Shown here piece by piece: positions 13,789 through 30,625 of a stretch of DNA of 64,000 nt. Numbering within the stretch: position 1 is the first letter of the stretch; each line of letters starts with the position of its first letter. The translations under genes were made by a program, and so were the position numbers. This stretch comes from an archaeon (GTDB taxonomy: Archaea; Iainarchaeota; Iainarchaeia; Iainarchaeales; Iainarchaeaceae): the NCBI GenBank assembly GCA_035289485.1, contig DATDXA010000031.1, positions 27,807 through 91,806 of the forward strand. The letters run 5' to 3'. The notes below the pieces were generated by a model. That model saw only the letters and a program-made list of their open reading frames with translations, was not told the DNA's origin and ran no database searches.

Positions 13789-16700
13789 ATGGGAAAAAAA
13801 CTCCTGCCTTTGCTGCTGCTCTTTTCGCTTGTTTTTGCAGGCTGCCTTGCCAACCCGACAACCGAAGACCGCCTCTCCTGCCTCGAACTCACATCATATG
13901 CTTTCACATCAATCCCCCAATGCAAAACGCAGGATGAGTGCTTTTCGCGCGCACAGGCTGCTCTTGGTTTTGATGAATCCTCCCTTAACTCCATTACCCG
14001 TGAAGAGCTCCTAGGCGCAAAAAACCATCTCGCGCGCTCATGGCTCTTTCTCAATAACGCAAGGGCGAATCTCAAAAACATCCATGCCTTATGCTACTCC
14101 GAGAGCTATTTGGGAATTCCAATGGAAGTGAATGAGCTCAATTCAAATCTCACAACCGTTGGAAAAGAAATAGATTTCTTCAACAAATCCGCGGCGCGCG
14201 CAATCAACACAGAGCTCACTTCAATGGAACTAGATGACATCAATGTGATTGCGCAAGAGCCGCTCTTTGATGATTACTCAGTTCTAAACCAGAATGTGGT
14301 GGATTTTTCGGCGCACAATTCCTCCGGTAAAACCTACGCCTCACGGTTCATCCGCGAGGCCGAAAAATTCAACACAATCGCGCAAACACTAAGCCTTCAG
14401 GGCACACTGCAGCAAACAAGCCTTTTTGGAATAGTTTCAGAAAACAAATCCGCGGCAAAAGAACTGCTAGCCGAATCATCAAAAAAGAGGGATTTTCCGC
14501 TGCAAATAATCGCGCCGGTTTTTTATGGCATTTCAGATTTCCTGCGTGATTTTTTTGCGCTCGGAGGCTCTCTGCAGTCCCTAAAAGCCCTGCCCTCATT
14601 TGATGTGCTATCCTCAATCAACAGCCTCGTGGGAAGCGACAACTCCGCCGCATCTGAATTCTTCTCAGTATTCAAGTCAGATGCGGAGCACAGGAATTTA
14701 CTGAACCTGAAAAACTCCGGCAAGATGCAGCGGGCAAGTTCAGAACTGCCATTGCTTGAATCCGGGCTTGAAATGATTTCCGCTTCCCTCAAATCAATTT
14801 ACACGCAGGATTACCTTGATGCCGGCCTTGCATCCTCGGGTTTTGAGGAATTTCCCGTATCCGAACCGGATCCGCGCAATTTCTATTCTGCTTATTCTGC
14901 AAGGATAAATTTCGTAAAATCGAGGCTGCGCTCCCTTGAGCAGGCGGAGTTTCTTGGCACAATAACCCTTGGCGCAAAAACAACAGAACTTATCGAAATA
15001 CTAGAAGAGAATTCGCGCATTGCAAATGAAATGGATTATTTCACGAGGCTCTCATCCGGCGCCCTGTCCGCATGCGCAGAAAGCCTCTTGCTCGCAGAAT
15101 CAAAAATTTCCTCAAAAGAATTTGAATCGGGAGATGCCGCCGTACTCTCACTCAAGGCAAAGCTGGCTTCCGAGATTTCGGATTTCAAAGCGCAAAACCG
15201 ACTCTCAGGGTGCATTGCAGCGCTTGCGGATTTTCGCAGGCTCGAAGAATACATTAAAAGCGAAAACCCAAGTGCAAAAGCAGCCGAACTGATTGCAGCG
15301 TGCATAATTGATGCGCAGCAGCTCGGCCCTTTTGCGCAATCAGCGGAACTTTCCGCGCAGCTAAATGCCCTAAACAAAATAGTGCCGCCATATGCTAACC
15401 CCGAACTTGTCCTATCTTCCTGCACAAGCTTAAAACAGAGGCTTCTAACCTCCGCGCAATCCTCAGCCGAATCCGCTTCCGCAACACAAAAATTTTCCAC
15501 ACTCTCAAATTACGTCTCAATTCTTGCGCAATTTGCAGCGAAATTTCCCTCTCTTCCATCGGAGCCCGCGGCAAAAAAACTCCAGAATTCTTTCACGGAA
15601 ATTTCCTCAAATTTTACTGATTCCGGCATCAAGAGCGAATCAATTGCGCAAGCGTCCGAACTTGGCGCAAAGCTCGAAAGCCTCAATGCGGATGCAGAGC
15701 AAACACTCAAATCACTTGCCTCAGAGGCGGTGGAAAAATATTCCAAAATAGATTACCCGCAAAACCCGAACCCTCTTCTAATCCCTTCTGGTGTGCTTTC
15801 TGCTTCACAATCCTTTGCGAGAATTTCGTTTGAAAATATCCCCCGCGAAATTCCCCTGTCCGTTATTTCCGCAATAAGCCTGAATTCGCGGGATGCCGCC
15901 GCTGTTTTCTCCACAGGAAATATCGGCTTTGCAGCCCAGGGCGAGAAAACATCCCTGCGTTTTACCGGCCTTCTGCCCGGCATAAATTCAATAGTGCTTG
16001 ATCTCAATGCATTCGCCCAAAGCGCGGGAGCAAAAAATCCCGAAATTCCGCTAAGTGCCGGCGCGGAAAAAATAATCTCTGAAAAAGACTCCATCCTGAA
16101 AAACGCCGCACAATTTTCAGGCGACAAAAAACCCGAGATTGATTTTTTCTCCCAAAAAATAGATTTCCTTGCAAAGCAGGGGCTTTTGGATGATGCGGCA
16201 AAGGCGCTTGCGCTGCTTAAGGAAACTTATTCGGGCGCGGAAGTGCAGGCACAGGAGGCGCTAAAAAAGAAAGCCGATTCATACGCCGAGAAATTCGGGC
16301 AGCTTGCAGCCCTGCGCACCTCCCTTGCAAAGAATTCGAAAGATTTGCTTGATAATTTTTCCTCGCTTGGCGCAGCAATTCCCGCAGAAATTGCCGCATA
16401 TATCCCGATTACAGGGCAGCGCGCAAAAGAACTCTCTGTGCTTGCAGCAAAACAAATTCCGCAGGAAAAGGAATTTGCAGCCCTTATGCAAAAAGGCGAT
16501 TTTGCAGGCGCCATATCGCTTGCCGAAAAAACAGGGCTTGATGAACAAATAACGCTGCTTGATTCTGCTAACAGCGAATCGGAAAATGCCATTGAAAAAA
16601 TCAGGCAGAACGCAATCTCCTCATACGAACTCGCTTCAGAAAAAAGCAAATCTTCTCCTGCGAGTGCCGCTGCCGAGCAGCTTCTCTTAAAATCCAGGGA

Positions 16701-16953
16701 TTCTTTGGGGAAAAAATCCTACCTAAGCTCCCTGCTAAATTCCTCAAATGCGCTTGCTGTTCTCCCTTCGGGCAACCAAAACCTTTTCGGGGGTTTTGAA
16801 ATTCCGCTTCCGGTTTACCCGCTCGCTCTTGTGGTTGTCGCTGCAGGAATTTATGCGTGGAAAAAGAAATCCGTTCAAAAGCCCGCAGAGCCTTCAAGAG
16901 TAAAAAAAGCAAATGAAGAAAATCAGGAAGATGCAGAGCCGCTTCTTTTCTAA
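13789..16953 (+). CDS. Large (1054 aa) exported Ala/Ser/Leu-rich protein with N-terminal signal peptide plus lipobox-like Cys and a C-terminal transmembrane anchor
   Basis: MGKKLLPLLLLFSLVFAGC signal/lipobox, low-complexity predicted-helical body, and C-terminal LALVVVAAGIYAWKKK followed by an acidic tail. Confidence 0.7.
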   Translation: MGKKLLPLLLLFSLVFAGCLANPTTEDRLSCLELTSYAFTSIPQCKTQDECFSRAQAALGFDESSLNSITREELLGAKNHLARSWLFLNNARANLKNIHALCYSESYLGIPMEVNELNSNLTTVGKEIDFFNKSAARAINTELTSMELDDINVIAQEPLFDDYSVLNQNVVDFSAHNSSGKTYASRFIREAEKFNTIAQTLSLQGTLQQTSLFGIVSENKSAAKELLAESSKKRDFPLQIIAPVFYGISDFLRDFFALGGSLQSLKALPSFDVLSSINSLVGSDNSAASEFFSVFKSDAEHRNLLNLKNSGKMQRASSELPLLESGLEMISASLKSIYTQDYLDAGLASSGFEEFPVSEPDPRNFYSAYSARINFVKSRLRSLEQAEFLGTITLGAKTTELIEILEENSRIANEMDYFTRLSSGALSACAESLLLAESKISSKEFESGDAAVLSLKAKLASEISDFKAQNRLSGCIAALADFRRLEEYIKSENPSAKAAELIAACIIDAQQLGPFAQSAELSAQLNALNKIVPPYANPELVLSSCTSLKQRLLTSAQSSAESASATQKFSTLSNYVSILAQFAAKFPSLPSEPAAKKLQNSFTEISSNFTDSGIKSESIAQASELGAKLESLNADAEQTLKSLASEAVEKYSKIDYPQNPNPLLIPSGVLSASQSFARISFENIPREIPLSVISAISLNSRDAAAVFSTGNIGFAAQGEKTSLRFTGLLPGINSIVLDLNAFAQSAGAKNPEIPLSAGAEKIISEKDSILKNAAQFSGDKKPEIDFFSQKIDFLAKQGLLDDAAKALALLKETYSGAEVQAQEALKKKADSYAEKFGQLAALRTSLAKNSKDLLDNFSSLGAAIPAEIAAYIPITGQRAKELSVLAAKQIPQEKEFAALMQKGDFAGAISLAEKTGLDEQITLLDSANSESENAIEKIRQNAISSYELASEKSKSSPASAAAEQLLLKSRDSLGKKSYLSSLLNSSNALAVLPSGNQNLFGGFEIPLPVYPLALVVVAAGIYAWKKKSVQKPAEPSRVKKANEENQEDAEPLLF

Positions 16954-16954
16954 A

Positions 16955-18172
16955 TCATTTCTTCAAATAAAAGTAGGCGAAAACACCAAGCGAAATCAGC
17001 GCAAGTATTGCAGAGCCGATTATTTCAATCCCTATTCCCTTCTGCAATGTCACAGTTGTGGTTTCGCACTCAAGCAGGCGCGATTCATACTCTGCCGCGC
17101 ACCCAAGTTCGTAATTGCCAGCGCTCAGGCCTTTCACGCTGAAAACAACATCCTGCGAAGCATTTGGTTCAAGCGTGCCAATTGATTTGGATTTTTCCCC
17201 GGTAACTTCAAGGCCCGTAAGAGGCGTTATTGCTACGCTAGAAACATTTTCCTTGCTTATATTTTGCACCGTGATTTTGAGCGGAATGCTCCCCCCAGTG
17301 TAGAGCTTGTCATTATCCAGCGCGACTTTTACCGAAATCTTGTGCGGCGGCTCAACCGCCCCAAGATCTGGCCTGTTTGTGAGCATCCTCTCTTCCTCAC
17401 CAAAAACATTTGTAAATGCCATGACCGAGGGGAGCAGCGTGAAGGGCACTGCCTTGTGCGCTACAATAAAATATGAAATGCTCAGTTCCCCAGGCTTTGC
17501 GCAGTTTCCAAGCGCATCCCGCTCAGAGCACTTTGGCACTGTTCCGCTCTTTGAAGTGATTCCGTCAAGCACGCTAACTTCAGGAGCCGCCCTTTCAAGC
17601 TCGGCTTTTCTATAGCTTAGTGAAACCGTTGCATCTTCAGTTCCAAAATTTCTTGCAACTGAAGTGATTTTGAACGGCACTCCCACATATGGCGCGTAAG
17701 TGTCAAGGTCCATTTTGAAGCCTTTCTCCTGCGGGAAATAAGCTCCCGTATAAACCCCGAATTTCGAATCCGCAAAAACCGTTATCGCATTCACGGTGTA
17801 AGAAGTCTGGCCGCAAACCGTGACGCTGTTATTTTCCTTCAAAAGCCCCTGGGGCACCGGGATTCTCACAACCCCGTTCTGGAAATCGGCGTATGTAAGC
17901 TCTGCAATCTTTTGCGTGTTGAATAAAACATTGATTTTCGCGTTGCTCTTTGGCACGGGCGCGAGATTTGCATTGAGTGAAATTATCTGAAACATCTCTG
18001 CGTTGATGTCGCCTGAGTAAATAAAATCAAAATTTGTGCACTTGTGCACATTAACCCCGCTTATGTAGAAATCCTGGTAGCCTTGGTCGTGGAAAGTGAA
18101 TTCCTGCACAACCGCTGCTGAGGTTATGTAGCTGAAAAATACTAGTGCAAATAAAATAAGGAATTTTTTCAT
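16955..18172 (-). CDS. Exported hypothetical protein with signal peptide and C-terminal TM anchor (Thr/Val/Ser/Gly-rich)
   Basis: MKKFLILFALVFFSYITSAAV signal and C-terminal IIGSAILALISLGVFAYFYLKK. Its stop codon is 1 nt from the stop of the convergent 1054-aa gene. Confidence 0.65.
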   Translation of the reverse strand: MKKFLILFALVFFSYITSAAVVQEFTFHDQGYQDFYISGVNVHKCTNFDFIYSGDINAEMFQIISLNANLAPVPKSNAKINVLFNTQKIAELTYADFQNGVVRIPVPQGLLKENNSVTVCGQTSYTVNAITVFADSKFGVYTGAYFPQEKGFKMDLDTYAPYVGVPFKITSVARNFGTEDATVSLSYRKAELERAAPEVSVLDGITSKSGTVPKCSERDALGNCAKPGELSISYFIVAHKAVPFTLLPSVMAFTNVFGEEERMLTNRPDLGAVEPPHKISVKVALDNDKLYTGGSIPLKITVQNISKENVSSVAITPLTGLEVTGEKSKSIGTLEPNASQDVVFSVKGLSAGNYELGCAAEYESRLLECETTTVTLQKGIGIEIIGSAILALISLGVFAYFYLKK

Positions 18173-18176
18173 TCGG

Positions 18177-18704
18177 TCACTTCTTTCTTTTAGTTTTCCT
18201 GGAAAGTTCCTTCAAAGGCTTTGCGCGCAGGAACAGTTCAGTAATTATTGAATCCGTTGTTTCTTTAATAGTTTTCCTGTTCTCAAGCTCGATGATTTTT
18301 GCCTTTGCATAGTTGCGAGCGGCATGCTTTTTGCAGTAATCTATCCCTTCGCAGAACACATTGTCCTGCACCTTTTCATCCCTGTATCCGCGCAGTTCAA
18401 GCCTTGCCCCTAATCTCTCAGGGTTCAGGCGCAGCAGCACGCAAAAATCAAACTTGCCCTTTATTTCGCAGAGCATATGCCCCTCAACAATGATGTTTTT
18501 TTCCTTTGCAAGGAGTTTATTTAGCCTCGATTCTAGTTTTTCAATCGGCACCACGAGTTCATTTTCCGCGGCGTCAAACTCCCCGATTCCTTCGCGCAGC
18601 GAGAATTCTTTCTCATTGAGGACCTTATGCCCGAGCTCCTGCCCAAGCTTTTTTGCAATGGTGGTTTTGCCAACCCCCGGGGTTCCTGTTATGCAGATTC
18701 GCAT
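18177..18704 (-). CDS. Fap7/hCINAP-like putative adenylate kinase (P-loop NTPase)
   Basis: MRICITGTPGVGKTT Walker A at the extreme N-terminus and about 175 aa, as in archaeal Fap7-type kinases. Confidence 0.7.
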   Translation of the reverse strand: MRICITGTPGVGKTTIAKKLGQELGHKVLNEKEFSLREGIGEFDAAENELVVPIEKLESRLNKLLAKEKNIIVEGHMLCEIKGKFDFCVLLRLNPERLGARLELRGYRDEKVQDNVFCEGIDYCKKHAARNYAKAKIIELENRKTIKETTDSIITELFLRAKPLKELSRKTKRKK

Positions 18705-19124
18705 CTGGAAATTGGGTCAGGATGGTAATAAAGCATTTCCGAATCGGCCATTAAATCAGAAAGCTGAAAATAGAAAAAGCGGCGGAAAGAGGAGAAGGGG
18801 TGAACAATGAGATTAGCTTACAGAGGCTTAATAGCATAAGTCTTCCTTAGGCCAATAGCTTGGTCAGTTAACCTCTCCCCGCCTTGTTCTAGGCACAGAA
18901 GCAATTTGGCGGCATTGGACTGCTGTTCGGTCTTTAGCCCACTACCACTTACAGATGACATTAAATGTTCCATGCCCAAAACATCATCTCTAATGATTTA
19001 AGTAGTATAAATACCTTTCTGTACAACGGAGCAAGTATAAGGCTCCGTTTACCTAAAGGAGTCATTTTGTTCAGTTATTTGGAAAAATAAGCTTTATAGT
19101 GCCTTTTTTCTTATGTATATTCAC

Positions 19125-19295
19125 TTTTTTTTCGCGCTAAAAAAATTTTTGAAAAAACGCGAAAATTCGGTTTATGTATATGGGTGTTTCTGTGAAAAAT
19201 TTCGCGCTTAATCGCCAAAATGGTTTTTACGGCTTTTCGCGTTTTTCCGTGTCCAAATTTTCGCGCGAATGATGTTTTCATAACGCAAAAAATGG
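19125..19295. repeat. AT-rich intergenic repeat block: palindrome TTTTCGCG-N21-CGCGAAAA plus direct copies of AAATTT(T)CGCGC...CAAAA(A)TGGTTT
   Basis: Read directly: ttttcgcgctaaaaaaatttttgaaaaaacgcgaaaa at 19129-19165. aaatttcgcgc at about 19196 and aaattttcgcgcg at about 19254. ccaaaatggttttt and caaaaaatggttt about 60 nt apart. Confidence 0.6.
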
Positions 19296-19406
19296 TTTAG
19301 AAAAAGAGTTTTAGCAAAACAAATACTTTCTTAGTATATTTTGGGCTGTTCCGGAAGCCTGCTTCCCATTATGGCAAGTAAATGATAGTGGAACTGAATT
19401 ATCCAT

Positions 19407-19733
19407 TCAAATATTTTTCATCAATTCCTTTTTCACTTTCTCAAAGAACTGCGGGGTTACTTTGCCAATCTCCTTGAGGAAAAGTTCCTTTTCCATCGAG
19501 GCAATGGTATCCGTTCTTACAAAGCTTTTTGCCCTGAGTTCCCCTGAAAAATCCTTTTCCGTCATTTCAAGCTCAAATTCTTTCATGGTTGCCTTGGTTG
19601 TCAGGGGGCAAGTCCAATAGAATGCGTGCGCGTTGTTGAAATGTTCATTTGAGATTATCAGTGCCGGCCTTATTTTGTAATCAATTTGGTTTGTGAAGGG
19701 AAACCTTGCCAAAGCCACGGTTAATTGGTTCAT
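19407..19733 (-). CDS. PemK/MazF-family toxin (mRNA interferase)
   Basis: DYKIRPALIISNEHFNNAHAFYWTCPLTTK matches the MazF/PemK core (RP.l..s......v.P.T). Confidence 0.7.
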   Translation of the reverse strand: MNQLTVALARFPFTNQIDYKIRPALIISNEHFNNAHAFYWTCPLTTKATMKEFELEMTEKDFSGELRAKSFVRTDTIASMEKELFLKEIGKVTPQFFEKVKKELMKNI

Positions 19734-19739
19734 TGAAAA

Positions 19740-19955
19740 TCACAGGTATGTTTTCCAGATTTCGTCCTCATCGTTGCCCCATATTTTTTCAAGCGCCCTT
19801 TGCGAAAGTGCCGCTTTGGCATACTTGTTCGGGCCCATTTTTTCCCGCAGTATTTCCCTTATGACCTCACTTCTGCTCTTGTAGAGGCCTGATTTTACCC
19901 TGCCGTCTATCCATTTTTCCATTTCATCCGTGACATCCGCGCTTAGTGTTGTCAT
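19740..19955 (-). CDS. Ribbon-helix-helix (CopG/ParD-like) antitoxin paired with the PemK toxin
   Basis: VKSGLYKSRSEVIREILRE RHH signature. 71 aa, immediately upstream of the toxin. Confidence 0.65.
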   Translation of the reverse strand: MTTLSADVTDEMEKWIDGRVKSGLYKSRSEVIREILREKMGPNKYAKAALSQRALEKIWGNDEDEIWKTYL

Positions 19956-20156
19956 ACATCACATATAGCGGGCTATATTTTTAAAGGTTATGAAATTGGC
20001 AAAGCAGGGCAATCTTGCACAAAACTATTTACTAAAAAATCTTAGTAAAACAAAGAATCTTTTGGTATAATTTAAGCGCCATTATGGCACACATTATGCC
20101 TTGGCAACAACTGCGTTGTTGATTCAATTTCCCGCCGATTTTGGGCTGTCTTTTAT

Positions 20157-20441
20157 TTGTTTTGCAGCCAGTTCCTTCAAATGCTTCTAGAATTTTTCGC
20201 ATACCTAACGGGCCTATTTGGAATACTCATGGCTTTTGGCCATTTCTTCCAGGCAAACAGGATTTACAAAAACAAAAGCTCAAAGGATGTGAGCCTTGTC
20301 AATTACATAATTCTAATGGTCGGCTGCTGGGTGTGGCTCATTTATGGGATATTGAAGCAGGACTACCCGATAATGATAAGCTTTGGGATTTCAGTTGTAG
20401 GGACAACTGCGGTTGTTGCGCTCAAGTTTGTTTACAAGTAG
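20157..20441 (+). CDS. SemiSWEET (MtN3/PQ-loop) sugar transporter, 3-TM half unit
   Basis: 94 aa with three TM helices. FQANRIYKNKSSKDVSL matches the PQ-loop motif (PQxxKxxKxKSxxGVS). Confidence 0.7.
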   Translation: MFCSQFLQMLLEFFAYLTGLFGILMAFGHFFQANRIYKNKSSKDVSLVNYIILMVGCWVWLIYGILKQDYPIMISFGISVVGTTAVVALKFVYK

Positions 20442-20567
20442 TTGGGAACTTAGTTGCCATTGTATTGGTACTTTGAATAAATACTTAACTCTGTTGGGGG
20501 TACTTATAATTGTTTAGGGGTTGAGGGGCCTAGATACTATTAGTTGTTTTTGAAAAATATGTGGCTT

Positions 20568-21098
20568 TTATTCTTTGAAAAAATGCACTAACCAAAGCGC
20601 AAACGAACCTATCAAATAGAAGTTTAGAAGATCAAACAAGAGCCTAATCACTGTAAGAGAATAAGGGTATGATACCTCAATTCCTGATGGAATTGGTGGC
20701 AATAAAACATCCGTTATTGGAAGGTATACAAGCGTAGAAAAAGCATACCATATCCCATAACCGGATAAGGTAAGTATTATGTTGATTTTATTTGGGTACA
20801 AACACTCCGTGAAAGACTTTGCCATAGATATATCATCACTCCAATTCTTTTTATCTCTTACTTTATCTAAAAACCAAAAGGAAAAGCAAGATATTAGATA
20901 AAATGTGGCAATCTCAGTCACAAGTCTCATAATCCAATAAATATGTGACCCTAAATGCACCCTAGCTACAAGATTTTGGGCAAAAATGTTTTCTGACGGA
21001 GTTAGCAGGATAGTATCTAATAAATAAAATAGCCCGTAGGCAAAAATAACAAAAAGAATTTTTTTCTCATTTGGTTTCAAAAAATAAAATGGCTTCAT
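20568..21098 (-). CDS. Hypothetical polytopic membrane protein (AT-rich gene)
   Basis: 176 aa, at least four hydrophobic segments, no recognised family. Local GC is clearly lower than the flanks. Confidence 0.45.
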   Translation of the reverse strand: MKPFYFLKPNEKKILFVIFAYGLFYLLDTILLTPSENIFAQNLVARVHLGSHIYWIMRLVTEIATFYLISCFSFWFLDKVRDKKNWSDDISMAKSFTECLYPNKINIILTLSGYGIWYAFSTLVYLPITDVLLPPIPSGIEVSYPYSLTVIRLLFDLLNFYLIGSFALWLVHFFKE

Positions 21099-21251
21099 CT
21101 ATAGTTCTATCTTTTCCAGAGTTAATATTATTTAGCAATTCTCTCTTAGTTCTCTCTTCCCCCCGGCTGTGAGGGAAAAGTTGCCACACCCGAGCCATTT
21201 TCTAAAGTGCACCTATATTTCTTGAAGGGCATAATATAATTTCCGTAAAAC

Positions 21252-21279
21252 GTTTCAATTCAGCCAATTCAATTGAAAC
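21252..21279. promoter_or_regulatory. Perfect 9-bp inverted repeat GTTTCAATT-N10-AATTGAAAC; candidate terminator or operator hairpin
   Basis: Read directly. Lies about 75 nt downstream of the aCPSF1 stop and about 155 nt upstream of the membrane-protein gene start. Confidence 0.4.
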
Positions 21280-21353
21280 ATCGCGACTTCACTCACCGGT
21301 TCCGCCCATGCGAATATATTGCGCCCCGACAGGGCTCAAATGAATAAATAGTA

Positions 21354-24300
21354 TTACTTCAACCTTACCGAATCCAAATTCCTTATCGCCTGCGAGCTTA
21401 TCCCGAACTTTTGCGAAAAGTGCTTTGCAAGCTCAACACATTTCTCGGCTTCGCCGTGATCTGTAAGTATTCTCTTCGGCTTGGGCTTTAGGTTTCTCAC
21501 ATACGCAGAGAGCTGCATGCGATCAGAGTGCCCTGAAAACCCATCAAGCCTTTCAATCCTAAGATTCACATTCAGTTTTCTTGTCCTTCCGGCATTATCC
21601 GTAATCGGCAGGCTCTTTACTCCGCTTAGAACCTTTCTTCCAAGCGAGCCTTCACCCTGGTAACCTACAAAAGCAAGTGTATTGACCGGGTTCTCCGCGA
21701 GGCGGTAGAAGTACTGAACGCTTGCTCCGCCAGTTAGCATTCCGCTAGAAGCCAGAATTATTGCTTTCCCGTTCTGTGCAATTGCGTCCCTGTCCTCCGG
21801 CTTTGCAACCTGGAAAATATCTGAAGTGAAGGGCGAATCGTTTTGCAAAACCCTCTTCTGAACTCCCGTGCGCAAATACTCAGGATATGCCGTGTGTATT
21901 GCCGAGCTCTCCTTGGTCATTCCATCAATATACACTTTGACTTCAGGGTCAATTAGGCCTTTTCTGTAATAATTCTCAATTACAAGCTGAATCTCCTGCG
22001 CCCTTCCGACAGCAAACACGGGCACCAAAATAGAGCCGCCCTGATTCACAGTTTCTTGTATGATTTTCAAAAACCTCGCTTCCGTGTCCTCACGCGCGGT
22101 TTGAATGTCATCCTTTCCGCCGTATGTGCTCTCAACAATAAGGGTTTCAAGCCTTGGATAATTTATGTCAACATTATTGAAGAGCCTGCTAAAGCCGTAC
22201 TTGATGTCTGCGCTGTAAACCAAGTTGTGCGCCCCCTCTCCAATATGAAGGTGCACTGATGCGCTTCCGAGCACATGTGCCGCATTATGGAATGTAAGCC
22301 TCATATCCGGCGCAATATCAGTAACTTCGCGGTAATCGCGTGTGATGCAGTACTTGAGCATTTCCTTAACATCGCGCTCAGAATAAGGCGCTTCCTTATT
22401 CTCCTTTGCCATGATGTCAAGATAGTCAAAGAGAAGCAGCGCGCCAAGATCACGTGTCGGCTCGGTGTTGTGAAGGCAAATTGGCGCTTCCCCGCCAACA
22501 AAATTCTGGTCATCTTCAACCGAAAAGTCGTAGACAAACCCATTAGTTGGCTCTACCATATTAATCTCTGTAATCGGGAGGAATGCCAGGTCGGTTTCTG
22601 AAAACTCCATTAACTTTTCCCTGGTTTCCTGCGCCACCAAAGAAGTGCCATTGGCACTTTTTACCCAATTCTTATTTAGAAGTTCTGCAAGCCTTTGCTT
22701 GGTGACATGCTTTCTATTTTTCAGCCTGTGGTAAAACCACTCTTGCCCAAAACCCACTTCTTTTAAGGGCAAAATATCGCACCCTTTCTTATCTAATCTT
22801 CTTTTTCCAAAGAACTCGGATAAATTTATTGTGATGCTGTAAACCGTATTTTTTGTTTTTGCTTTCGGCATCGCAATAGTAAATTTGCTGTATGTAAAGC
22901 CGAGTTGCGAGCATAAATATGACAAATCCGAGGCCAAATCCTTGCTGACAGTTGTTGCGGTAGCTGTCTTGTTCAGTTGGTTTATTGTGCCATCACCTTC
23001 AAAATAGGCTTCCAGAAAAGCTAACTTTAGTTCGTCCCCGACGTTGAATACTATTTCTGGTATTCTTTTACTTGTTGCTTTTTTATAGCCTGGGAAAAAT
23101 TCTTTCTTGAATACGTCCAACAAATTTTTAGAATTTATTGCCACCCTAAGCCTTGTTTCCTGGCTTATGCTATCTTTTGCCTCAATGTCGAACACTTTTC
23201 TAACCGCATTTTTAAGTTCCTCTACAATTCCCCTGTCTTTGAGCCCGAAGGTGAGCCTTATCCCCCTTTTCTCAAAATGACCTTCTGCAGTAAAATATCC
23301 TAAAATTTTCATGAGGTCTGTGTTCACGCTGATTTTGCCCGGGAGCTTGATTTTGGATCCTTTGCCATTGTATTGCTCCAAGCCAATCGTTTCAATTTTT
23401 TCATTTCCTGACGGGAGTTTGTGCGGGGCAATAAGATAGTCCCCAATCTTTAATTCGCTGACTTTGGCATCAGAGATTTTTCCATTTTTGAGGACAAATA
23501 CGCTGTGGGATCCCGTTACCTTTACCTTTCTTTTGTTCCTTGTCACAATTTCAAATATTTTGCCTTCAACTTTGTGCCTTATTACTTTTTTGACTTTCTT
23601 AAAATTAATTTTCTTGTCTTTTGAGAAAGCAGGCACGTATAACTCCTGATTTGGCTGTGCCGCCATGTATTCGTTTTCAGGATAAAAATCCACATTCTTC
23701 GAGTTGCCGATGATTTTATCTATCACTGCGCCAATTTTTTCTATTTTTATGCGGCCATTTTCCTTTATCATAACCGGTTCTGCATAGTCCACACTCATGT
23801 ACACCGGGCCGCGGTAACCCAGTTTGAACAGGTAAGGCAAAAATCCTATGTGGTCCATGTGCGTGTGGCTAATCACAACCGCATCAAGCTCATTTATCGG
23901 GAAGCGAATCGCGTCAAGATAGGGAAATGCGTCCTCAGAGTTTTGCGCCGCAACATTGATTCCACAGTCCATTAATATTTTTGTCCTGCGGGTTTCAAGC
24001 ATTATGCAGCTTCTTCCAACCTGCCTAAATCCTCCAAGAGGAGTTAGCCTAATCCAGCTCGGGCCCGGCTTTTCAGAATAAATTTTCTTTGCAGTTTCCT
24101 GCAAAATCTTTTTGCGCTCGGAAGCATATTTCACAAGGTGGTGCCTAATCCCGCGCAATATTTCACTTGGCGAAGTCGGGCTTCTCAAAATTTTAGGGGT
24201 CCATCCGGTTTGCAGTATAATTTCTTTTGTTGTCATTCCGCCCTTGCCAATTACAAGGCCGGGCTTAAGCGCTTCAATTACAACTTCACTAAAAGCTTCC

Positions 24301-24581
24301 ATGAACTGAATGTCCGCGATTTTGGCGTCCTCAGGGACAATTTTCATTATCTTTTCGCGCGCCTCTTTTTCCTCAAGCAGCAGAGATTTGTCCGCGCGGA
24401 TATTCACTTTCTTCTTTAGCTGGTGCGCAATCGCGCGCACATAATCCTCGTTCTCGTGGAAAGCGCGGGGATTTTTTGTATAAATCGCAATCTCAGGCCC
24501 TTCAAGGTCGACTGATGAGACTTCGGCTTCCTTTGGCACGATTGCCGCAACAGTTTCCTTTACTTCCTTTAGATATTCCAT
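21354..24581 (-). CDS. aCPSF1 / FttA (KH-KH, metallo-beta-lactamase, beta-CASP, RMMBL ribonuclease; archaeal transcription termination factor) interrupted by an intein
   Basis: N-terminal KH domains (VIGKGGMTTKEI), HTHMDH zinc motif, and GPVYM then intein then TEPTRDL, which aligns with ...GPVYCTRPTRDL... of intein-free aCPSF1. C-terminal beta-CASP/RMMBL region. 1075 aa = 259 + 446 + 370. Confidence 0.9.
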   Translation of the reverse strand: MEYLKEVKETVAAIVPKEAEVSSVDLEGPEIAIYTKNPRAFHENEDYVRAIAHQLKKKVNIRADKSLLLEEKEAREKIMKIVPEDAKIADIQFMEAFSEVVIEALKPGLVIGKGGMTTKEIILQTGWTPKILRSPTSPSEILRGIRHHLVKYASERKKILQETAKKIYSEKPGPSWIRLTPLGGFRQVGRSCIMLETRRTKILMDCGINVAAQNSEDAFPYLDAIRFPINELDAVVISHTHMDHIGFLPYLFKLGYRGPVYMSVDYAEPVMIKENGRIKIEKIGAVIDKIIGNSKNVDFYPENEYMAAQPNQELYVPAFSKDKKINFKKVKKVIRHKVEGKIFEIVTRNKRKVKVTGSHSVFVLKNGKISDAKVSELKIGDYLIAPHKLPSGNEKIETIGLEQYNGKGSKIKLPGKISVNTDLMKILGYFTAEGHFEKRGIRLTFGLKDRGIVEELKNAVRKVFDIEAKDSISQETRLRVAINSKNLLDVFKKEFFPGYKKATSKRIPEIVFNVGDELKLAFLEAYFEGDGTINQLNKTATATTVSKDLASDLSYLCSQLGFTYSKFTIAMPKAKTKNTVYSITINLSEFFGKRRLDKKGCDILPLKEVGFGQEWFYHRLKNRKHVTKQRLAELLNKNWVKSANGTSLVAQETREKLMEFSETDLAFLPITEINMVEPTNGFVYDFSVEDDQNFVGGEAPICLHNTEPTRDLGALLLFDYLDIMAKENKEAPYSERDVKEMLKYCITRDYREVTDIAPDMRLTFHNAAHVLGSASVHLHIGEGAHNLVYSADIKYGFSRLFNNVDINYPRLETLIVESTYGGKDDIQTAREDTEARFLKIIQETVNQGGSILVPVFAVGRAQEIQLVIENYYRKGLIDPEVKVYIDGMTKESSAIHTAYPEYLRTGVQKRVLQNDSPFTSDIFQVAKPEDRDAIAQNGKAIILASSGMLTGGASVQYFYRLAENPVNTLAFVGYQGEGSLGRKVLSGVKSLPITDNAGRTRKLNVNLRIERLDGFSGHSDRMQLSAYVRNLKPKPKRILTDHGEAEKCVELAKHFSQKFGISSQAIRNLDSVRLK
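22467..23804 (-). mobile_element. Intein (446 aa, Ser1...His-Asn, +1 Thr) with LAGLIDADG homing-endonuclease domain, inserted in aCPSF1
   Basis: Begins SVDYAEPVMI and ends ICLHN followed by T. LAGLIDADG motifs ILGYFTAEGHF and LKLAFLEAYFEGDGTI. AT-richer than the exteins. Confidence 0.8.
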
Positions 24582-24706
24582 AAGCTCAACTTCAGTCCGT
24601 TCAGATTTTTCACAATAATTTTTAGTATGCGGGCGATTTTTGCAAATTTTTTAATAAGGAAAATTCGTTAAATGTAAAATATCGGATTCATCCAAGTGCG
24701 CCGCAT

Positions 24707-25345
24707 TCACGCCATTGCGGTTTCCTTTACTATCTTCTCAATCTTGTCCTTTGCGATTTCGCGAACGCCCTTCTCATCTATAACAAAAACAGTTGCCCCG
24801 ACTCCGCCCGAATAAATGTCCCTTTTCTTTGCGGCCTCAATTGCCCTGACCGCAAGTGTTATTGCGTCTTTTTCGTTCATTCCCTTTTTGTAAGAATTAT
24901 CAAGCGTTACAAGCGCGGGCTCAGTTCCCGAGCCGCTTACCGCATATTTGTCCCGCTCAAGGATTGCGCCCATAGGGGTCAGATCAAAGAGCTCTGCCTT
25001 TCCGTTATAGCCGCCGATTATCAGCTGCACAATGTATGGGTAATACCTGTTAGCATTCATTACATTGGAAAGGAAATTCGCCGCAGCGCGCGCTGTCATG
25101 CGCTCATTGCGTTCAAGCTCATACACTTTCGCGTGGCTTTTTAGGAACCTTATAATCATGAGGCTGTCGCCAACGTCTCCAGCGTTTGTTACCGCAAGAG
25201 AGCCATTAATCTTGTAAATTTTCTCGGACTCGTCCTCGTATGCTATGTGCCCCATTGAGGCGCGCTTATCCGCGGCGAGAACTAGCCCAGAGTCGTAAAT
25301 TAATCCTACCGTAGTTGTTCCGGTTTTAAGGTCTTTACTTTCCAT
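24707..25345 (-). CDS. psmB: Proteasome beta subunit
   Basis: Short propeptide followed by TTTVGLIYDSGLVLAADKRAS (N-terminal Thr nucleophile). Confidence 0.9.
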   Translation of the reverse strand: MESKDLKTGTTTVGLIYDSGLVLAADKRASMGHIAYEDESEKIYKINGSLAVTNAGDVGDSLMIIRFLKSHAKVYELERNERMTARAAANFLSNVMNANRYYPYIVQLIIGGYNGKAELFDLTPMGAILERDKYAVSGSGTEPALVTLDNSYKKGMNEKDAITLAVRAIEAAKKRDIYSGGVGATVFVIDEKGVREIAKDKIEKIVKETAMA

Positions 25346-25410
25346 AAATTCACCAAAATCAGAGGTTATTATCTGAAAGATTGTCCCCCTGAAACCTTTA
25401 TAAAGCTTAG

Positions 25411-25740
25411 TCAGGCGTAAGCCGCTGCCTTTTGCGCCCCTATTTTCTCCATGGATTTGCGCACAAGCCTCTTATCAAGCTCTGAGAGCTGCTTTACAAC
25501 TGCGCTTCCCGAATTTATCCTATACATCTCCGCCTTTCCGACCCTGCGCGTGCCCTCCACAATTCCGGCCTCTTCGAGATTTTTCCAGAATGTTTCAAGT
25601 GTGTTCCACGAAACACCCGAATTCCTGCAAATGTCCCTTTTTGAATAATCAAAGACGTCGTTTTCAAGCAGGAAATCAATCACCCTTATGGCGGGGTAGT
25701 CGCCGAAGAATTTCACAAACAGGGATTTTTCAGATTTCAT
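25411..25740 (-). CDS. Winged-helix DNA-binding protein (putative transcriptional regulator)
   Basis: DICRNSGVSWNTLETFWKNLEEAGIVEGTRRVGKAEMYRIN helix-turn-helix plus wing pattern. Confidence 0.55.
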   Translation of the reverse strand: MKSEKSLFVKFFGDYPAIRVIDFLLENDVFDYSKRDICRNSGVSWNTLETFWKNLEEAGIVEGTRRVGKAEMYRINSGSAVVKQLSELDKRLVRKSMEKIGAQKAAAYA

Positions 25741-25757
25741 AATAAAATAATTTCTGC

Positions 25758-26054
25758 ATGGGCATATTTAAATCTTTATCGTTATCATTTCAATTTATGA
25801 AACTTTCTCCCATTGACGTAAAAAGGCGGATTCTTTACAAAATGGCGAGAAAGAACCTCTGGGGCGGGAAGCATACTGCCTATGATGAGATGTGGAAACG
25901 CGGGCTTCCACAAGAACACTGGGCTGATTTCAGGCACGAACTCGACAACCTCATAAAAGAAGGTTTTGTGGCAAAGAAGCCTACCGGTTATGGCATGCAC
26001 ATTTCCCTGAACGTGCGCATGAAGGCCGAAATAGAAAAGATTATTTTTGAGTGA
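25758..26054 (+). CDS. Hypothetical protein
   Basis: 98 aa, no confident domain. Confidence 0.3.
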   Translation: MGIFKSLSLSFQFMKLSPIDVKRRILYKMARKNLWGGKHTAYDEMWKRGLPQEHWADFRHELDNLIKEGFVAKKPTGYGMHISLNVRMKAEIEKIIFE

Positions 26055-26754
26055 CCGGCGCCTTCTTGGATGCGGCATCTTTCACCGGCTTCACTTCAAA
26101 GCTTTCCACAATCTCAACTTTCTTAATTTCAGGAATCACATCCTTAATCGTTTTCGAAAAAGGCCCGACAAACGGAGCAATGTTTTTTGCAAGCTCTTTT
26201 GGAAGCTTCACTTTGAGCGCATCGCCATCAAGCATGGTTTGCGCCTTCTCTTTTAGCGGGAAAAACTTTTCAGTTAGAAGCTGCGCCTTTTCTTTCGAAT
26301 CCTTAACTTCGCGCACGATTTTGAGTTCGTACTCGACTTCCTTTCCCGCAAGATCGCTGTTCAAATCAACGCGCACCCTTCCGCCGGAAACCGTCTGCAC
26401 TTTCCCATAGCTCCCATTAAGGTCAACCACCAAGCCGGGGAGCGGCTGGATATTTCTTTTGCGGAACTGCTGCAAAGGGACAATTACAACAAGCTCTTTT
26501 CTTCTTTCGCCAAAAGCTTTCGCGGCTGCAAGCTTAACCGTTCGCGATTCGCCCTCTTTCATTTCGCGCACTGCATCCTCAAGGCCCGCGAGTATGTCTC
26601 CCCTGCCAACAATCGTTGGCACCGGGCCAAAAACCGCATTCTCGCGCCAAAAACCATTATCCTTGGCTACCTGCTCTGAAGTTGAGTCAAAAATCCTGCC
26701 GCTCTCAAGTTCACGCCCTGTGAACTCCAAAAGCACAATGCTGTTTTGTTTCAT
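26041..26754 (-). CDS. FKBP-type peptidyl-prolyl cis-trans isomerase (long archaeal form with insert-in-flap domain)
   Basis: VLLEFTGRELESGRIFDST...GRGDILAGLEDAVREMKEGE FKBP core plus a C-terminal helical extension. 237 aa. Confidence 0.8.
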   Translation of the reverse strand: MKQNSIVLLEFTGRELESGRIFDSTSEQVAKDNGFWRENAVFGPVPTIVGRGDILAGLEDAVREMKEGESRTVKLAAAKAFGERRKELVVIVPLQQFRKRNIQPLPGLVVDLNGSYGKVQTVSGGRVRVDLNSDLAGKEVEYELKIVREVKDSKEKAQLLTEKFFPLKEKAQTMLDGDALKVKLPKELAKNIAPFVGPFSKTIKDVIPEIKKVEIVESFEVKPVKDAASKKAPVTQK

Positions 26755-26836
26755 AACATCCCTTCCAAAAAAATGCGCTTTAAAAGGCTTTTTAATCGCA
26801 ATCTACTTTGTATTCAGATAATTTTTAGCCCTGAAT

Positions 26837-28210
26837 GTGTTTTTAAAATCAGCGTGTTTTGAAGGTTTAAAGATGAAACTCACAGGCGGACAGGTATTTG
26901 CTATTTTCATAGTAGTCATAATGCTAGGCTCAATTGTGAGCGTTTTTACTTTTGGCACAGCGCAGCAGCCAGCCCAGCAAGGCCCGAATGTCCCTGCGCC
27001 AATTGAAAACACAACCATTCTCTCATATGATGCAACAGGCGTTAGCGCCAAAGTAATACAGGTTTTCCCAACGGCTCTTCTCATTGCAAACACAACCTCT
27101 CTTGAAACACTTGAAATTGATACCGCGCTTCGCAAAGTTCCAGGCATTACGCTTGTCAGCGGCTCGCAGTTTGTCGACTCAGAAGGCGCGGGCGTGAATT
27201 TCAGGACCTCTCTTCGTTTTGAATCCGCGGAAAAAATCCCCGCAGCGCTTGCCGCAATAAATGAAATTCCAATCCTTTCCTCAGTTGAAGTTTTCCCGCA
27301 GGCGCTTGTAACGGTGCCAGATTCCATAGAGTTCAAGAACGCAGGCCTTGAACTTACGCTAGGATATTCATTCCCAAGTAAGCAGCTTCAGGCATACGTT
27401 TCTGATTCTACCAAGAGCGGCGATGAAATCAAAATCACAATCCAGGCCGATTTCAAGGGGCAGAGCTTTGCCGGTTCAGTTGCATATGAAGAACAGGAGC
27501 CTCAGCAGGCATATTTCGTTGACGGAGAATTCACAATATCCTCGCTCGAATCCGATTATTTCCTGCGAACTACCGCGCCTCTTTCGCAGATGAATTTGCT
27601 TGAAAGCGCGAAGGCGGAAATAATTGCGGCTTCACAAGACCCTGCGGCAACAATAGAGATTGCGCCGGCGTCAAATTCCACGCTCATTTATTTTTCAAGC
27701 CCTGAAAATATTTTTGAGCAGGATTTGAATACTTTCCTCTCAAATTTTACAGGCGTTTCATCCTTCTCTTTGCAGCTTGACCAGAATTTTGCATCTGTAA
27801 ATTTCGATGGCAACGCAGGCGAGTACACTGAATTTCGCGATTCGCTGCGCGCGCAGCTAGATTCGCTTGGCTTTAAGGTTGCAACAATTACCGAGCCAGT
27901 AGTTTCGCTGCAGGGCAACACTTCCGCTTCGCAAGGCAAGCAGGAGTTCCTTGATTTGGTTGAGGCAAGCGCAAAGAAGAATTCGCTGCAAATTGAGGTG
28001 CTGCAAAAAGCGGTGATTGATGCCAACACAATTTTCGTCCCTGATGTGAATGCAGATTTCGCGGTTGCGCAAGGGAAATTCCAAGCTTATGTAAATACCG
28101 CGCACAAATCCGGCGATTCTGTAAACCTCTCGCTTCTGATTTTCGGAAGCAAGAAAGACGGTGCCGTGCAGATTCAGGCGCAGGAAGCTGACACTGCTGC
28201 GCAGCCGTAG
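26837..28210 (+). CDS. Hypothetical exported/membrane-anchored protein with internal duplication
   Basis: N-terminal TM/signal (VFAIFIVVIMLGSIVSVFTF). Two similar segments, QAYVSDSTKSGDEIKITIQADFKGQ and QAYVNTAHKSGDSVNLSLLIFGSKKDG. Confidence 0.5.
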   Translation: MFLKSACFEGLKMKLTGGQVFAIFIVVIMLGSIVSVFTFGTAQQPAQQGPNVPAPIENTTILSYDATGVSAKVIQVFPTALLIANTTSLETLEIDTALRKVPGITLVSGSQFVDSEGAGVNFRTSLRFESAEKIPAALAAINEIPILSSVEVFPQALVTVPDSIEFKNAGLELTLGYSFPSKQLQAYVSDSTKSGDEIKITIQADFKGQSFAGSVAYEEQEPQQAYFVDGEFTISSLESDYFLRTTAPLSQMNLLESAKAEIIAASQDPAATIEIAPASNSTLIYFSSPENIFEQDLNTFLSNFTGVSSFSLQLDQNFASVNFDGNAGEYTEFRDSLRAQLDSLGFKVATITEPVVSLQGNTSASQGKQEFLDLVEASAKKNSLQIEVLQKAVIDANTIFVPDVNADFAVAQGKFQAYVNTAHKSGDSVNLSLLIFGSKKDGAVQIQAQEADTAAQP

Positions 28211-28299
28211 ACATTTCAGCAAATGATCGAAAATTACTTATTGAAGCATTGATTGACGCTGAAAATTCGAAATCAAATTGGTGACTTTTGGTCTTCCAA

Positions 28300-28644
28300 T
28301 CACTTCCCAAATTTCTCAATAGCTTCCGCAATATCCCCTTTCGTTTCTTCAAGCGCCTTGCGCGCCTTTTCTTTTGAAACCTTTGCCTGCTCTGAAACCA
28401 TTTCAATGTCCGATTCAGGAATTTGCGCTTCCCCTTTTTCCTCTTTTGCAGGGCCGATTACCGTGTAGGTTTTCTGCCCGCCAAGATCCACTGCGCTAAC
28501 CTGCGGCTTTTCAAAAACAAGCCTTGAGCCGTCCTCAAGTTCAAATATCACGCGCTTAGTATCAAGGTCTTCGCTTTTGATTCCAAGCTGGCGCATCATC
28601 TGCTTCATTTTGCGAGGGTCCATTCCTCCAAGCCCTGGGAACAT
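28300..28644 (-). CDS. nac: Nascent polypeptide-associated complex alpha subunit (archaeal NAC)
   Basis: NAC domain (MMRQLGIKSEDLDTKRVIFELEDGSRLVFEKPQV) plus C-terminal UBA-like tail (EETKGDIAEAIEKF). Confidence 0.85.
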   Translation of the reverse strand: MFPGLGGMDPRKMKQMMRQLGIKSEDLDTKRVIFELEDGSRLVFEKPQVSAVDLGGQKTYTVIGPAKEEKGEAQIPESDIEMVSEQAKVSKEKARKALEETKGDIAEAIEKFGK

Positions 28645-28760
28645 AAATCAAAACACCAATCATAAATGGGTGTGAGAGGTTTTTATTGGTTTTGAGGCGC
28701 GAAAGCGCAAGGCCCGCAGTTGTAAACCTTTATTAATCGCCTTGCAGTTCCCTCTTTACA

Positions 28761-29402
28761 ATGCCAAAAAATATCCTAAGTTCATTCCGTGCCTTCTCAG
28801 AGAGCTTCGAAGTCCCGGAAGCAGACCCGCGCGCGGACGCCCTCAAGATTTATTTCAACCGCGGCGGAGTGATTTCTGCCGTGAAAACCTCAAAGCCCTG
28901 GCCAAAATTAATTTACCCAACTCCCCTTCGCATGGACGCGCAGATAAAAGAGCTTGAGGCCTTGCGCTCGCATTATGGCAAAAAGGAGAAGGAGTGGAAG
29001 GAGAAATTGCACGGCGCAAAAACATATCACCAGCGCCACCAGGTAATGAAATTTTCCGAGCCGCTCTACTGGCAGCACACCGCAAAATCCCTGACCGATA
29101 AGGAGTACAAATCAGACGCCCAAAAGGTCGGCCTTCCTGTGCACCTCTCAGCAGACCCCAAGTGGAAACCGATGATTAATATGTTTGTAAATGATGTCGA
29201 GTACCGCAAGAATTTGGTAGAAACCGTGCAGACAAGCATCGTTTACAAAAAGGACAAGAAGGTTGCAAAGTACGCCGATGTTTTGCAGGCGCTGCGCTCT
29301 GAAATTTCCGAATCAAAGCTAGCGGACCTAAAAAAGAAAATCACACAGCTCGATGGCGAAATAAACGCCCTAAAATCAATAAAAAAATGGGCGCAGGAAT
29401 AG
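28761..29402 (+). CDS. Hypothetical protein
   Basis: 213 aa, Lys-rich, no recognised domain. Confidence 0.4.
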   Translation: MPKNILSSFRAFSESFEVPEADPRADALKIYFNRGGVISAVKTSKPWPKLIYPTPLRMDAQIKELEALRSHYGKKEKEWKEKLHGAKTYHQRHQVMKFSEPLYWQHTAKSLTDKEYKSDAQKVGLPVHLSADPKWKPMINMFVNDVEYRKNLVETVQTSIVYKKDKKVAKYADVLQALRSEISESKLADLKKKITQLDGEINALKSIKKWAQE

Positions 29403-29425
29403 CCGTATACTTTTTCCATACTTGA

Positions 29426-29439
29426 CACCGGCACCGAAC
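29426..29439. repeat. Direct repeat copy 1 (CACCGGCACCGAAC) bracketing the VapBC-2 cassette
   Basis: Exact 14-nt match with 30439-30452. 1013 bp apart, same orientation. Confidence 0.5.
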
Positions 29440-29494
29440 CCTAGTTTTGTTTTTATTCTTCCGCGCGCGCATTCTTTTCTGAGGTGGTTGCTTT

Positions 29495-29785: not shown

Positions 29786-29834
29786 TTGCTACGGGGGCGA
29801 TATTATTAATTACTATAGCGCTATAGACTTAGGT

Positions 29835-30423: not shown

Positions 30424-30438
30424 ACACTGCTGTGCCCG

Positions 30439-30452
30439 CACCGGCACCGAAC
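30439..30452. repeat. Direct repeat copy 2 (CACCGGCACCGAAC), 15 nt after the VapC-2 stop
   Basis: Exact match to 29426-29439. Confidence 0.5.
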
Positions 30453-30598
30453 TCCCTGAATTTCTTTATAAACCTCCAAAGTGTTCTTTGCTTTGGTGAT
30501 TTTGAATGTATGAATTTGCAATAGTGAAGTTTTCGGATGAAGAAACAGAAAGCGGTGAACCATGGGTCGCAAATTAGCGGCGGCAGAAAAATAGTTTT

Positions 30599-30624: not shown

Positions 30625-30625
30625 T

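Follow-up and report, generated by a model that had tools for sequence, protein, structure and literature searches.

A predicted Ser1-type intein with a nested LAGLIDADG endonuclease in the archaeal termination factor gene aCPSF1/FttA

Introduction

The nuclease aCPSF1/FttA is essential in archaea, where it reportedly serves as the general factor of transcription termination. Its gene is interrupted by a long in-frame insert in a 64,000-nucleotide stretch of contig DATDXA010000031.1 (assembly GCA_035289485.1), the whole of which is termed the window below, and the locus raises the question of what this insert is and how an active enzyme might be obtained from a gene so divided. The evidence presented here makes it very likely that the insert, situated in frame in the metallo-β-lactamase (MBL) domain, represents a class 1 intein of the canonical kind, in which a LAGLIDADG homing endonuclease is nested. 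The features by which class 1 inteins are recognised are all in place, namely a serine at position 1 (Ser1), a T-x-x-H motif in block B, an aspartate in block F, a His-Asn end and a threonine directly after the insert (Thr+1), and the host protein is contiguous once the insert is removed. As the nearest intein-free orthologs (88% identity) are named 'Candidatus Diapherotrites archaeon', the host would be a DPANN archaeon of Diapherotrites/Iainarchaeota-like affiliation.

Results and Discussion

The interrupted gene encodes aCPSF1/FttA

The 1075-amino acid (aa) product of the open reading frame (ORF) matches the aCPSF1 equivalog model TIGR03675 in NCBIfam (810 bits; cut-off: 580) in two separate stretches, the second of which spans residues 704-1074. 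Its Pfam domains comprise KH_TffA (residues 2-68), the start of the metallo-β-lactamase domain (Lactamase_B; 189-271), Beta-Casp (861-983) and RMMBL (1003-1062), and this order of N-terminal KH, MBL, β-CASP and RMMBL domains is that of aCPSF1/FttA (arCOG00543, TIGR03675). The predicted spliced product furthermore contains the motifs MDCG (position 204), HTHMDH (239), FHNAAH (321), YSAD (346), VFAVGRAQE (412), GFSGHSD (571) and TDHGE (597), and its MBL motifs 1-4 and β-CASP motifs A-C all pair with the corresponding residues of the solved structure 2YCB. The host protein is aCPSF1/FttA, and ribonuclease and termination activities would be expected of it by orthology.

Insertion point and boundaries of the intein

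The junctions of the precursor (the slash marks the boundary here and below) read KLGYRGPVYM/SVDYAEPVMIKENG at the N-terminal and GGEAPICLHN/TEPTRDLGAL at the C-terminal side. A homology search returned 101 intein-free orthologs, 94 of which matched a junction pattern that allowed Ser, Thr or Cys at the +1 position. In all 94 the sequence GPVY[C/S/V/L/M]T.PTRDL runs through with no insert, and two carry exactly GPVYMTEPTRDL. Deletion of residues 263-705 leaves a 632-aa protein with the junction GPVYM/TEPTRDL, as in an intein-free ortholog, and this product can be aligned end to end, with a gap-free junction, with aCPSF1 of M. thermautotrophicus (2YCB; e-value: 1e-208), its P. horikoshii counterpart (3AF5) and the FttA chain of 9BCT. 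Across the junction, 29 aa of the intein-free ortholog P0007 (locus L082) are identical to the spliced product. The intein-less junction of this locus is given by GGCCCTGTATACATG/ACAGAGCCCACAAGGGAC and by GGCTACCGCGGCCCTGTATACATG/ACAGAGCCCACAAGGGACCTCGGT.

The insertion point, between Met262 and Thr263 of the spliced numbering, lies 18 residues past the last histidine of MBL motif 2 and splits a β-strand/loop junction in the MBL domain. An intein start at the Cys or Met that precedes the serine (CSVDY) was ruled out because the intein-free orthologs retain that residue; it represents the extein position -1, which is variable and mostly Cys. Met262 occupies this position in the window allele, while most alleles have Cys. 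The boundaries are further delimited by the intein models TIGR01445 (intein_Nterm), which matches precursor residues 264-363 (intein 2-101) from model position 2, and TIGR01443 (intein_Cterm), which matches residues 682-706 and ends on Thr+1 (24 bits; cut-off: 15.6).

These results bear on the first-pass annotation of this DNA, which was made from the letters alone and proposed an intein in aCPSF1/FttA. The host that it named is upheld by the TIGR03675 score and the domain content, and the junctions that it quoted (GPVYM/SVDYAEP and ICLHN/TEPTRDL) both occur in the ORF. Its claim that intein-free orthologs are uninterrupted at this point agrees with the 94 contiguous sequences and the three gap-free structural alignments, and its placement of the insert within the MBL catalytic core with the position of the junction behind HTHMDH. 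The length of 446 aa that it gave needs correction, as the insert measures 443 aa between the same boundaries (Ser263-Asn705).

Splicing and endonuclease motifs

Conserved residues were read from an alignment of ten inteins found at this insertion point, hereafter site a, namely the window copy and nine others. The aligned inteins are 430-455 aa long, and the nine others share 51-57% amino acid identity with the window intein. The residues S1, T94, H97, E171, D268, D423, H442 and N443 are invariant in all ten (Table 1). The pattern is not due to chance: Pfam recognises an Intein_splicing domain (precursor residues 321-705; e-value: 7e-22) and LAGLIDADG_3 (e-value: 5e-16) in the insert. The two LAGLIDADG motifs, LMKILGYFTAE171G and LAFLEAYFEGD268G, each end in an acidic residue followed by glycine, as is characteristic of two-motif LAGLIDADG enzymes. 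Ser1, the C-terminal His-Asn, Thr+1 and the pair of LAGLIDADG motifs had been reported in the first-pass annotation, and all are both present and conserved, with the quoted strings at intein positions 164-174 and 258-271.

Table 1. Features of the aCPSF1/FttA precursor gene and of other genes in the window.
Feature	Position	Strand	Remarks
aCPSF1/FttA precursor ORF (N-extein + intein + C-extein)	21354..24581	minus	1075 aa plus stop, single uninterrupted frame
N-extein, residues 1-262, KH domains and first part of MBL domain, ends GPVYM	23796..24581	minus	matches 2YCB residues 4-265
MBL motif 2 HTHMDH, residues 239-244	23850..23867	minus	pairs with HAHLDH of 2YCB
Intein, 443 aa, Ser263-Asn705 of precursor, predicted HINT domain with nested LAGLIDADG endonuclease	22467..23795	minus	junctions, Pfam and TIGR intein models
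Block A, SVDYAEPVMIKENG, Ser1 nucleophile	23754..23795	minus	S1, V2, D3 the same in all ten aligned inteins
Block B, T-G-S-H (intein T94...H97)	23505..23516	minus	V93-T94-G95-S96-H97-S98 invariant
First LAGLIDADG helix (block C), LMKILGYFTAEG, acidic E171	23280..23315	minus	E171, G172 invariant; Pfam LAGLIDADG_3
Second LAGLIDADG helix (block E), LAFLEAYFEGDG, acidic D268	22989..23024	minus	G267-D268-G269 invariant; LAGLIDADG_3 518-586
Blocks F and G, FVYDFSVEDDQNFVGGEAPICLHN, D423, penultimate H442, terminal N443	22467..22538	minus	V421-Y422-D423, C440-L441-H442-N443 invariant; TIGR01443
Thr+1 (Thr706), first C-extein residue, second nucleophile	22464..22466	minus	Thr in all 94 pattern-matched intein-free orthologs
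C-extein, residues 706-1075 plus stop, remaining MBL, β-CASP and RMMBL	21354..22466	minus	TIGR03675 stretch 704-1074
Proteasome subunit gene, directly upstream of aCPSF1	24707..25345	minus	Pfam Proteasome, e-value 1e-44
Large ORF	13789..16953	plus	1054 aa; no Pfam match at E <= 1e-5
Large ORF	26837..28210	plus	457 aa; no Pfam match at E <= 1e-5
Orc1/Cdc6 gene	33282..35618	minus	778-aa ORF
Intein in Orc1/Cdc6	34302..35393		364 aa, Cys1, LAGLIDADG domain
DNA polymerase D DP2	38023..41442	minus	1139 aa, intein-free
DNA polymerase D small subunit	41439..42980	minus	intein-free

Predicted fold and closest known inteins

The AlphaFold2 model of the intein, built on the family alignment, has a mean pLDDT of 84 and a pTM of 0.84, with a loop of low confidence at residues 331-338. 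According to this model the insert has the HINT fold, and the order of its secondary-structure elements is consistent with a pseudo-dimeric αββαββα LAGLIDADG fold. Foldseek comparison returned more than 20 solved inteins at a probability of 1.00. The best solved match is the TliVMA intein (7QSS; e-value: 2e-28; TM: 0.79), followed by PI-PkoII (2CW7), PI-PfuI (1DQ3) and PI-SceI, while mini-inteins and the free-standing LAGLIDADG enzymes I-DmoI, I-OnuI and I-Tsp061I (e-values of about 1e-4 to 1e-5) appear further down the list. The first three share with the model a HINT domain, a two-motif LAGLIDADG domain and an accessory region (TM: 0.79-0.80; e-values: 1e-23 to 1e-28), but are only 17-23% identical to the window intein in sequence and reside in different hosts, namely V-ATPase A, DNA polymerase and ribonucleotide reductase (RNR). 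The active endonuclease of TliVMA is told apart from the degenerate one of PhoVMA by its retention of both catalytic acidic residues, one of which PhoVMA has lost (PMC8966425); both are likewise retained in the window intein. The crystallised forms of TliVMA and PhoVMA are C1A mutants and these inteins hence start with Cys, in contrast to the Ser start observed here.

In sequence, the best match of the family profile in the PDB is to the Ser-initiated TFIIB mini-inteins of Methanocaldococcus (Mja/Mvu; 5O9J, 5O9I; e-value: 2e-49), whose HINT domain is 44% identical to that of the window intein and where the match starts from VDYSEPIIIKE after Ser1, the same opening as in the window intein. The TFIIB inteins resemble the window intein in carrying the endonuclease nested at the same place and in residing in a protein of the transcription machinery, and related genomic TFIIB alleles have the same Ser1 and Thr+1 junctions (L010: PITY/SVD...HN/TIHDKGL). 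They differ in host gene and site, and TFIIB-hosted relatives reach no more than about 30% identity over the full length. The MjaTFIIB intein comprises 335 residues (PMC8966425), compared to 443 here, and the solved TFIIB structures are endonuclease-deleted mini-inteins.

The flanks of the next-best relatives identify their hosts as GyrB (IM/SVD...HN/TDADVDG), Top6B (AVDN/SVE...HN/SLDA) and TFIIB. Ser1 inteins with an SV[D/E] start in these three and a fourth host gene, from archaea and bacteria, show 24-35% full-length identity to the window intein. They share with it the start S-V-D/E-x-x-E-P and the end [FL]xxGxGxxxLHN, while differing from it in host genes and sites. The Ser1 SV[D/E]xxE[PH] clade (loci L006-L080) spans archaea and bacteria, the latter including Myxococcota, Gemmatimonadota and Gammaproteobacteria, with example hosts being GyrB (L006, L011, L019, L027, L032), Top6B (L009, L014, L043) and TFIIB (L010, L017). 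The intein in the Hadarchaeota TFIIB locus L017 ends in CLKD instead of HN, and its C-terminal junction may be degenerate or non-canonical.

The fold also bears on an alternative reading, in which the insert does not splice and is kept in the mature protein, either as a domain specific to the lineage or as a decayed intein. A lineage-specific domain insertion had been named in the first-pass annotation as one case that would overturn its proposal, and it was rejected on the strength of blocks A, B, F and G and of the predicted fold. We found nothing that positively supports a retained domain in general and consider it very improbable: all of the splicing blocks are intact and invariant, the model matches self-splicing inteins, orthologs of up to 88% identity have no insertion at this point, and a retained insert would split the β-strand/loop junction right behind the zinc-binding motif of an essential enzyme.

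Distribution of the site-a intein

Nine other aCPSF1 proteins recovered in the homology search (P0003, P0004, P0028, P0030, P0032, P0035, P0002, P0016 and P0034) carry an insert at exactly the same point, which starts with SVD[YF] and ends in CLHN before T.PTRD. When the intein alignment was used to scan 185,579 GTDB species genomes, at least four site-a loci were found (L001-L004; 48-54% identity), all confirmed in aCPSF1; the titles of their records name Nanoarchaeia, Nanoarchaeota or an 'uncultured archaeon'. Among 241 million JGI metagenome records, a second scan detected at least nine site-a contigs (L083-L090 and L092; 48-56% identity). Both scans rely on two short peptide patterns, and their counts are lower bounds. 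In both, the similarity of inteins falls to 35% or less beyond the site-a allele (48-57%). A profile search of a 5.8-billion-protein set with the same alignment left the alignment's own members unlisted, making it unusable for counting the allele, and added a single new aCPSF1 fragment (P0124). Altogether, about 18 other public sequences, comprising proteins, genome contigs and metagenome contigs, carry the site-a intein, all of them DPANN where named, and the closest known relative is approximately 57% identical to the window intein.

These alleles resemble that of the window in their insertion point, their junctions (GPVY[C/M]/SVDY...CLHN/T.PTRD), their length of 430-455 aa and the presence of all catalytic residues. 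They differ from it in sequence (48-57% identity) and mostly in having Cys rather than Met at -1. Three of the genes (P0002, P0016 and P0034; products of 1588-1609 aa) are furthermore unlike the window gene in harboring a second intein further along.

The recurrence of the same junctions in separate records also weighs on the possibility of an assembly or binning artefact, in which a foreign intein was mis-joined into the aCPSF1 gene. The genome is of the uncultured type and the insert differs in composition from its flanks, as such an artefact might produce. The reading frame is, however, continuous through both junctions, and together with the independent occurrences this renders an artefact almost negligible in our estimation.

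Composition and mobility

The intein is AT-richer than the host gene, as the first-pass annotation had observed, with a guanine-cytosine (GC) content of 0.397 compared to 0.468 and 0.477 for the exteins and 0.458 for the whole window. The third-position value (GC3) is likewise lower in the intein (0.44) than in the exteins (0.51-0.52), and codon positions 1 and 2 follow the same trend. Because all three codon positions are affected, the AT-richness partly reflects amino acid composition.

The relatives provide a clearer view of the history of the element. The nearest of the intein-bearing relatives found is P0005, whose exteins are 90% identical; its site a is empty, and its intein lies elsewhere in the gene. 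The relatives listed at 82-88% identity are intein-free. The window intein is 56-57% identical to the inteins of hosts with only 44-47% extein identity, and less similar (53-55%) to the inteins of hosts whose exteins are 59-65% identical. Similarly, P0028 and P0030 share 61% identity in their exteins and 83% in their inteins, whereas P0030 and P0032 share 88% and 69%, respectively. Given this disagreement between the similarities of inteins and exteins, and the empty site in close relatives, the element appears to be mobile; the comparison points to its movement between lineages, with DNA cleavage by the excised protein predicted from sequence and model.

It is nonetheless possible, if rather unlikely, that splicing is intact while the homing endonuclease is dead, leaving a fixed and vertically inherited passenger that no longer moves. 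Many large archaeal inteins have degenerate endonucleases, PhoVMA being one example (PMC8966425), the distance to the nearest known relative means that no very recent transfer is documented, and the loop of low model confidence could be accommodated by this reading. Against it, E171, D268 and the adjacent glycines are invariant in the family, whereas PhoVMA lost one acidic residue, and the empty sites and the discordance just described require that the family was mobile, if only in its recent past.

Proposed mechanism

An intact class 1 intein, which is the reading that we favour, would be expected to operate as follows. The whole 1075-aa precursor would be translated first. Ser263 (Ser1) would then attack the Met262-Ser263 bond in an N-O acyl shift aided by Thr94 and His97 of block B, and the N-extein would pass to Thr706 (+1) by transesterification. 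Cyclisation of Asn705, with the help of His704 and of Asp423 of block F, would free the 443-aa intein, after which an O-N shift would restore the peptide bond, giving the 632-aa enzyme with GPVYM-TEPTRDL at its junction. As the insert splits the MBL fold beside the zinc-binding HxHxDH motif of a general termination factor, the unspliced nuclease is probably inactive and splicing presumably under strong selection, which would be exerted through the essential host. The excised intein would act as a site-specific endonuclease, cutting an intein-less allele around GGN CCN GTN TAY ATG/ACN GAR CCN ACN, and repair would copy the element over the cut allele. Homing of this kind into intein-less alleles would account for the patchy distribution of the element and for its movement between lineages.

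Several points weigh against this interpretation. Splicing and endonuclease activity are both predictions drawn from sequence and a structural model. The two nucleophiles are hydroxyls (Ser1 and Thr+1) and Met stands at -1 where most alleles have Cys, which may affect the efficiency of splicing. A second, intein-free copy of aCPSF1 may exist outside the 64-kb window. Lastly, the lower GC content was judged a weak sign of foreign origin or recent import, given that the difference extends to codon positions 1 and 2.

The proximity of the site to the zinc centre invites a further reading, in which conditional splicing has been co-opted as a switch that ties the supply of active termination factor to a condition such as redox state, temperature or metal. 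Conditional splicing is documented for other archaeal inteins (PMC5790916, PMC11409957), and a Cys at -1 beside Ser1 in most alleles, together with the conserved Cys at intein position 440, could serve such a role. The window allele, however, has Met rather than Cys at -1, and the patchy distribution with empty sites in close relatives is more readily explained by a selfish element than by a regulator that is maintained. We therefore regard a regulatory switch as quite improbable.

Other insertion sites in aCPSF1

Site a, which lies in the conserved GPVYx/TxPT strand, is not the only point at which this gene is interrupted. Among long aCPSF1 homologs of DPANN archaea, four further insertion sites were observed, three of them at catalytic motifs. 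One lies directly after motif 2 (HAHMDH/CLPP...VHN/SGF; P0021), one within motif 4 (NLVY/SLD...FMHN/[ST][AG]D; P0005, P0037, P0038, P0002 and P0034), one in the conserved SGM/TGG loop (P0016) and one within β-CASP motif B (EGF/SVPY...LHN/SGHSD; P0036, P0044, P0048 and P0056). The inteins at three of these other sites are also Ser-initiated, starting with SLD, SVD and SVPY. A special relationship between the site-a intein and those at the other aCPSF1 sites, as ectopic movement within the gene would leave, was considered and rejected, as identity amounts to 24-34% in separate aligned segments; the site-a intein is no closer to them than to the inteins of GyrB, Top6B and TFIIB. We put forward, as an evenly balanced proposition, that aCPSF1/FttA is an unrecognised intein hotspot in DPANN archaea, with at least five sites, four of which hold Ser1 inteins of one broad SV[D/E]/SLD clade that also occurs in TFIIB, GyrB and Top6B, and with two inteins in some genes.

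Genomic surroundings and other genes in the window

A proteasome subunit gene precedes aCPSF1, and the same gene order is found in the orthologous loci L081 and L082. Two large ORFs with no Pfam match at the threshold given in Table 1 lie in the wider neighborhood, and in the related locus L081 a 1059-aa gene, a few genes from aCPSF1, likewise lacks a Pfam match. ARAGORN detected no tRNA genes in the whole window (1..64000).

The only match of 100% identity to the precursor in the searched protein database is an 834-aa protein (P0001), which corresponds to 21354..23858 on the minus strand. It begins at Met242 of the window ORF, inside MBL motif 2, so that residues 1-241, and with them the KH domains, are missing. 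A contig end, or the interruption of the gene by the intein, may have shortened this gene call.

A second intein in the window interrupts the Orc1/Cdc6 gene. It is inserted in the Walker A P-loop (IYGKTG/CIAGDSL...NGIISHN/TGKTSV), is AT-richer than its exteins (GC3: 0.40 vs 0.54) and shares only 21% identity with its counterpart in aCPSF1. In archaea, DP2 often hosts inteins, and intein-containing DP2 models are among the NCBIfam matches; in the window, the genes for DP2 and the adjacent small subunit are both intein-free.

Novelty and significance

The site had been thought possibly unrecorded in the first-pass annotation. This stands as regards the literature, in which no paper was found to link an intein with aCPSF1, and fails as regards sequence data, given the public DPANN carriers described above. 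In a full-text literature search that covered few subscription journals and did not extend to InBase or CDD, inteins were linked with aCPSF1, FttA, CPSF or β-CASP only incidentally, for example where a purification tag is mentioned or in a reference list. The main text of the Novikova 2015 cross-domain intein survey (PMC4760082) contains no aCPSF1-related term, and the Phung 2012 phylogenomic study of aCPSF1 makes no mention of inteins. Furthermore, the NCBIfam search returned intein-containing models for GyrA and Tes and none for aCPSF1. The host protein and insertion site thus appear undescribed, while the element itself is conventional and its mechanism without surprise; the site-a intein is probably best seen as the first-described allele in a notable host.

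The 2015 survey reports that catalogued inteins are concentrated in ATPases and in proteins of replication, recombination and repair (PMC4760082). A termination nuclease of the CPSF-73 family would represent a new class of intein host. The position of the site by the zinc centre agrees with the rule that inteins become established in those stretches of sequence that are most conserved and hardest to dispense with. As a resource, the locus offers a Ser1/Thr+1 intein without a cysteine nucleophile and with an apparently intact endonuclease, and the approximately 19 natural variants, the window copy included, are material for studies of splicing and of the homing site. There is also a consequence for annotation, as intein-bearing aCPSF1 precursors are named inconsistently. 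Site-a records appear as 'MBL fold metallo-hydrolase' or 'predicted metal-dependent RNase'. The record of P0021, whose intein lies directly after motif 2, bears the name 'LAGLIDADG family homing endonuclease'.

For the biology of DPANN archaea, these observations raise the question of whether the supply of FttA depends on the efficiency of splicing. If aCPSF1/FttA is indeed an intein hotspot in these reduced-genome organisms, the supply of their only general termination factor would hinge on one or two protein-splicing events, and these events could offer a point at which termination is controlled post-translationally.

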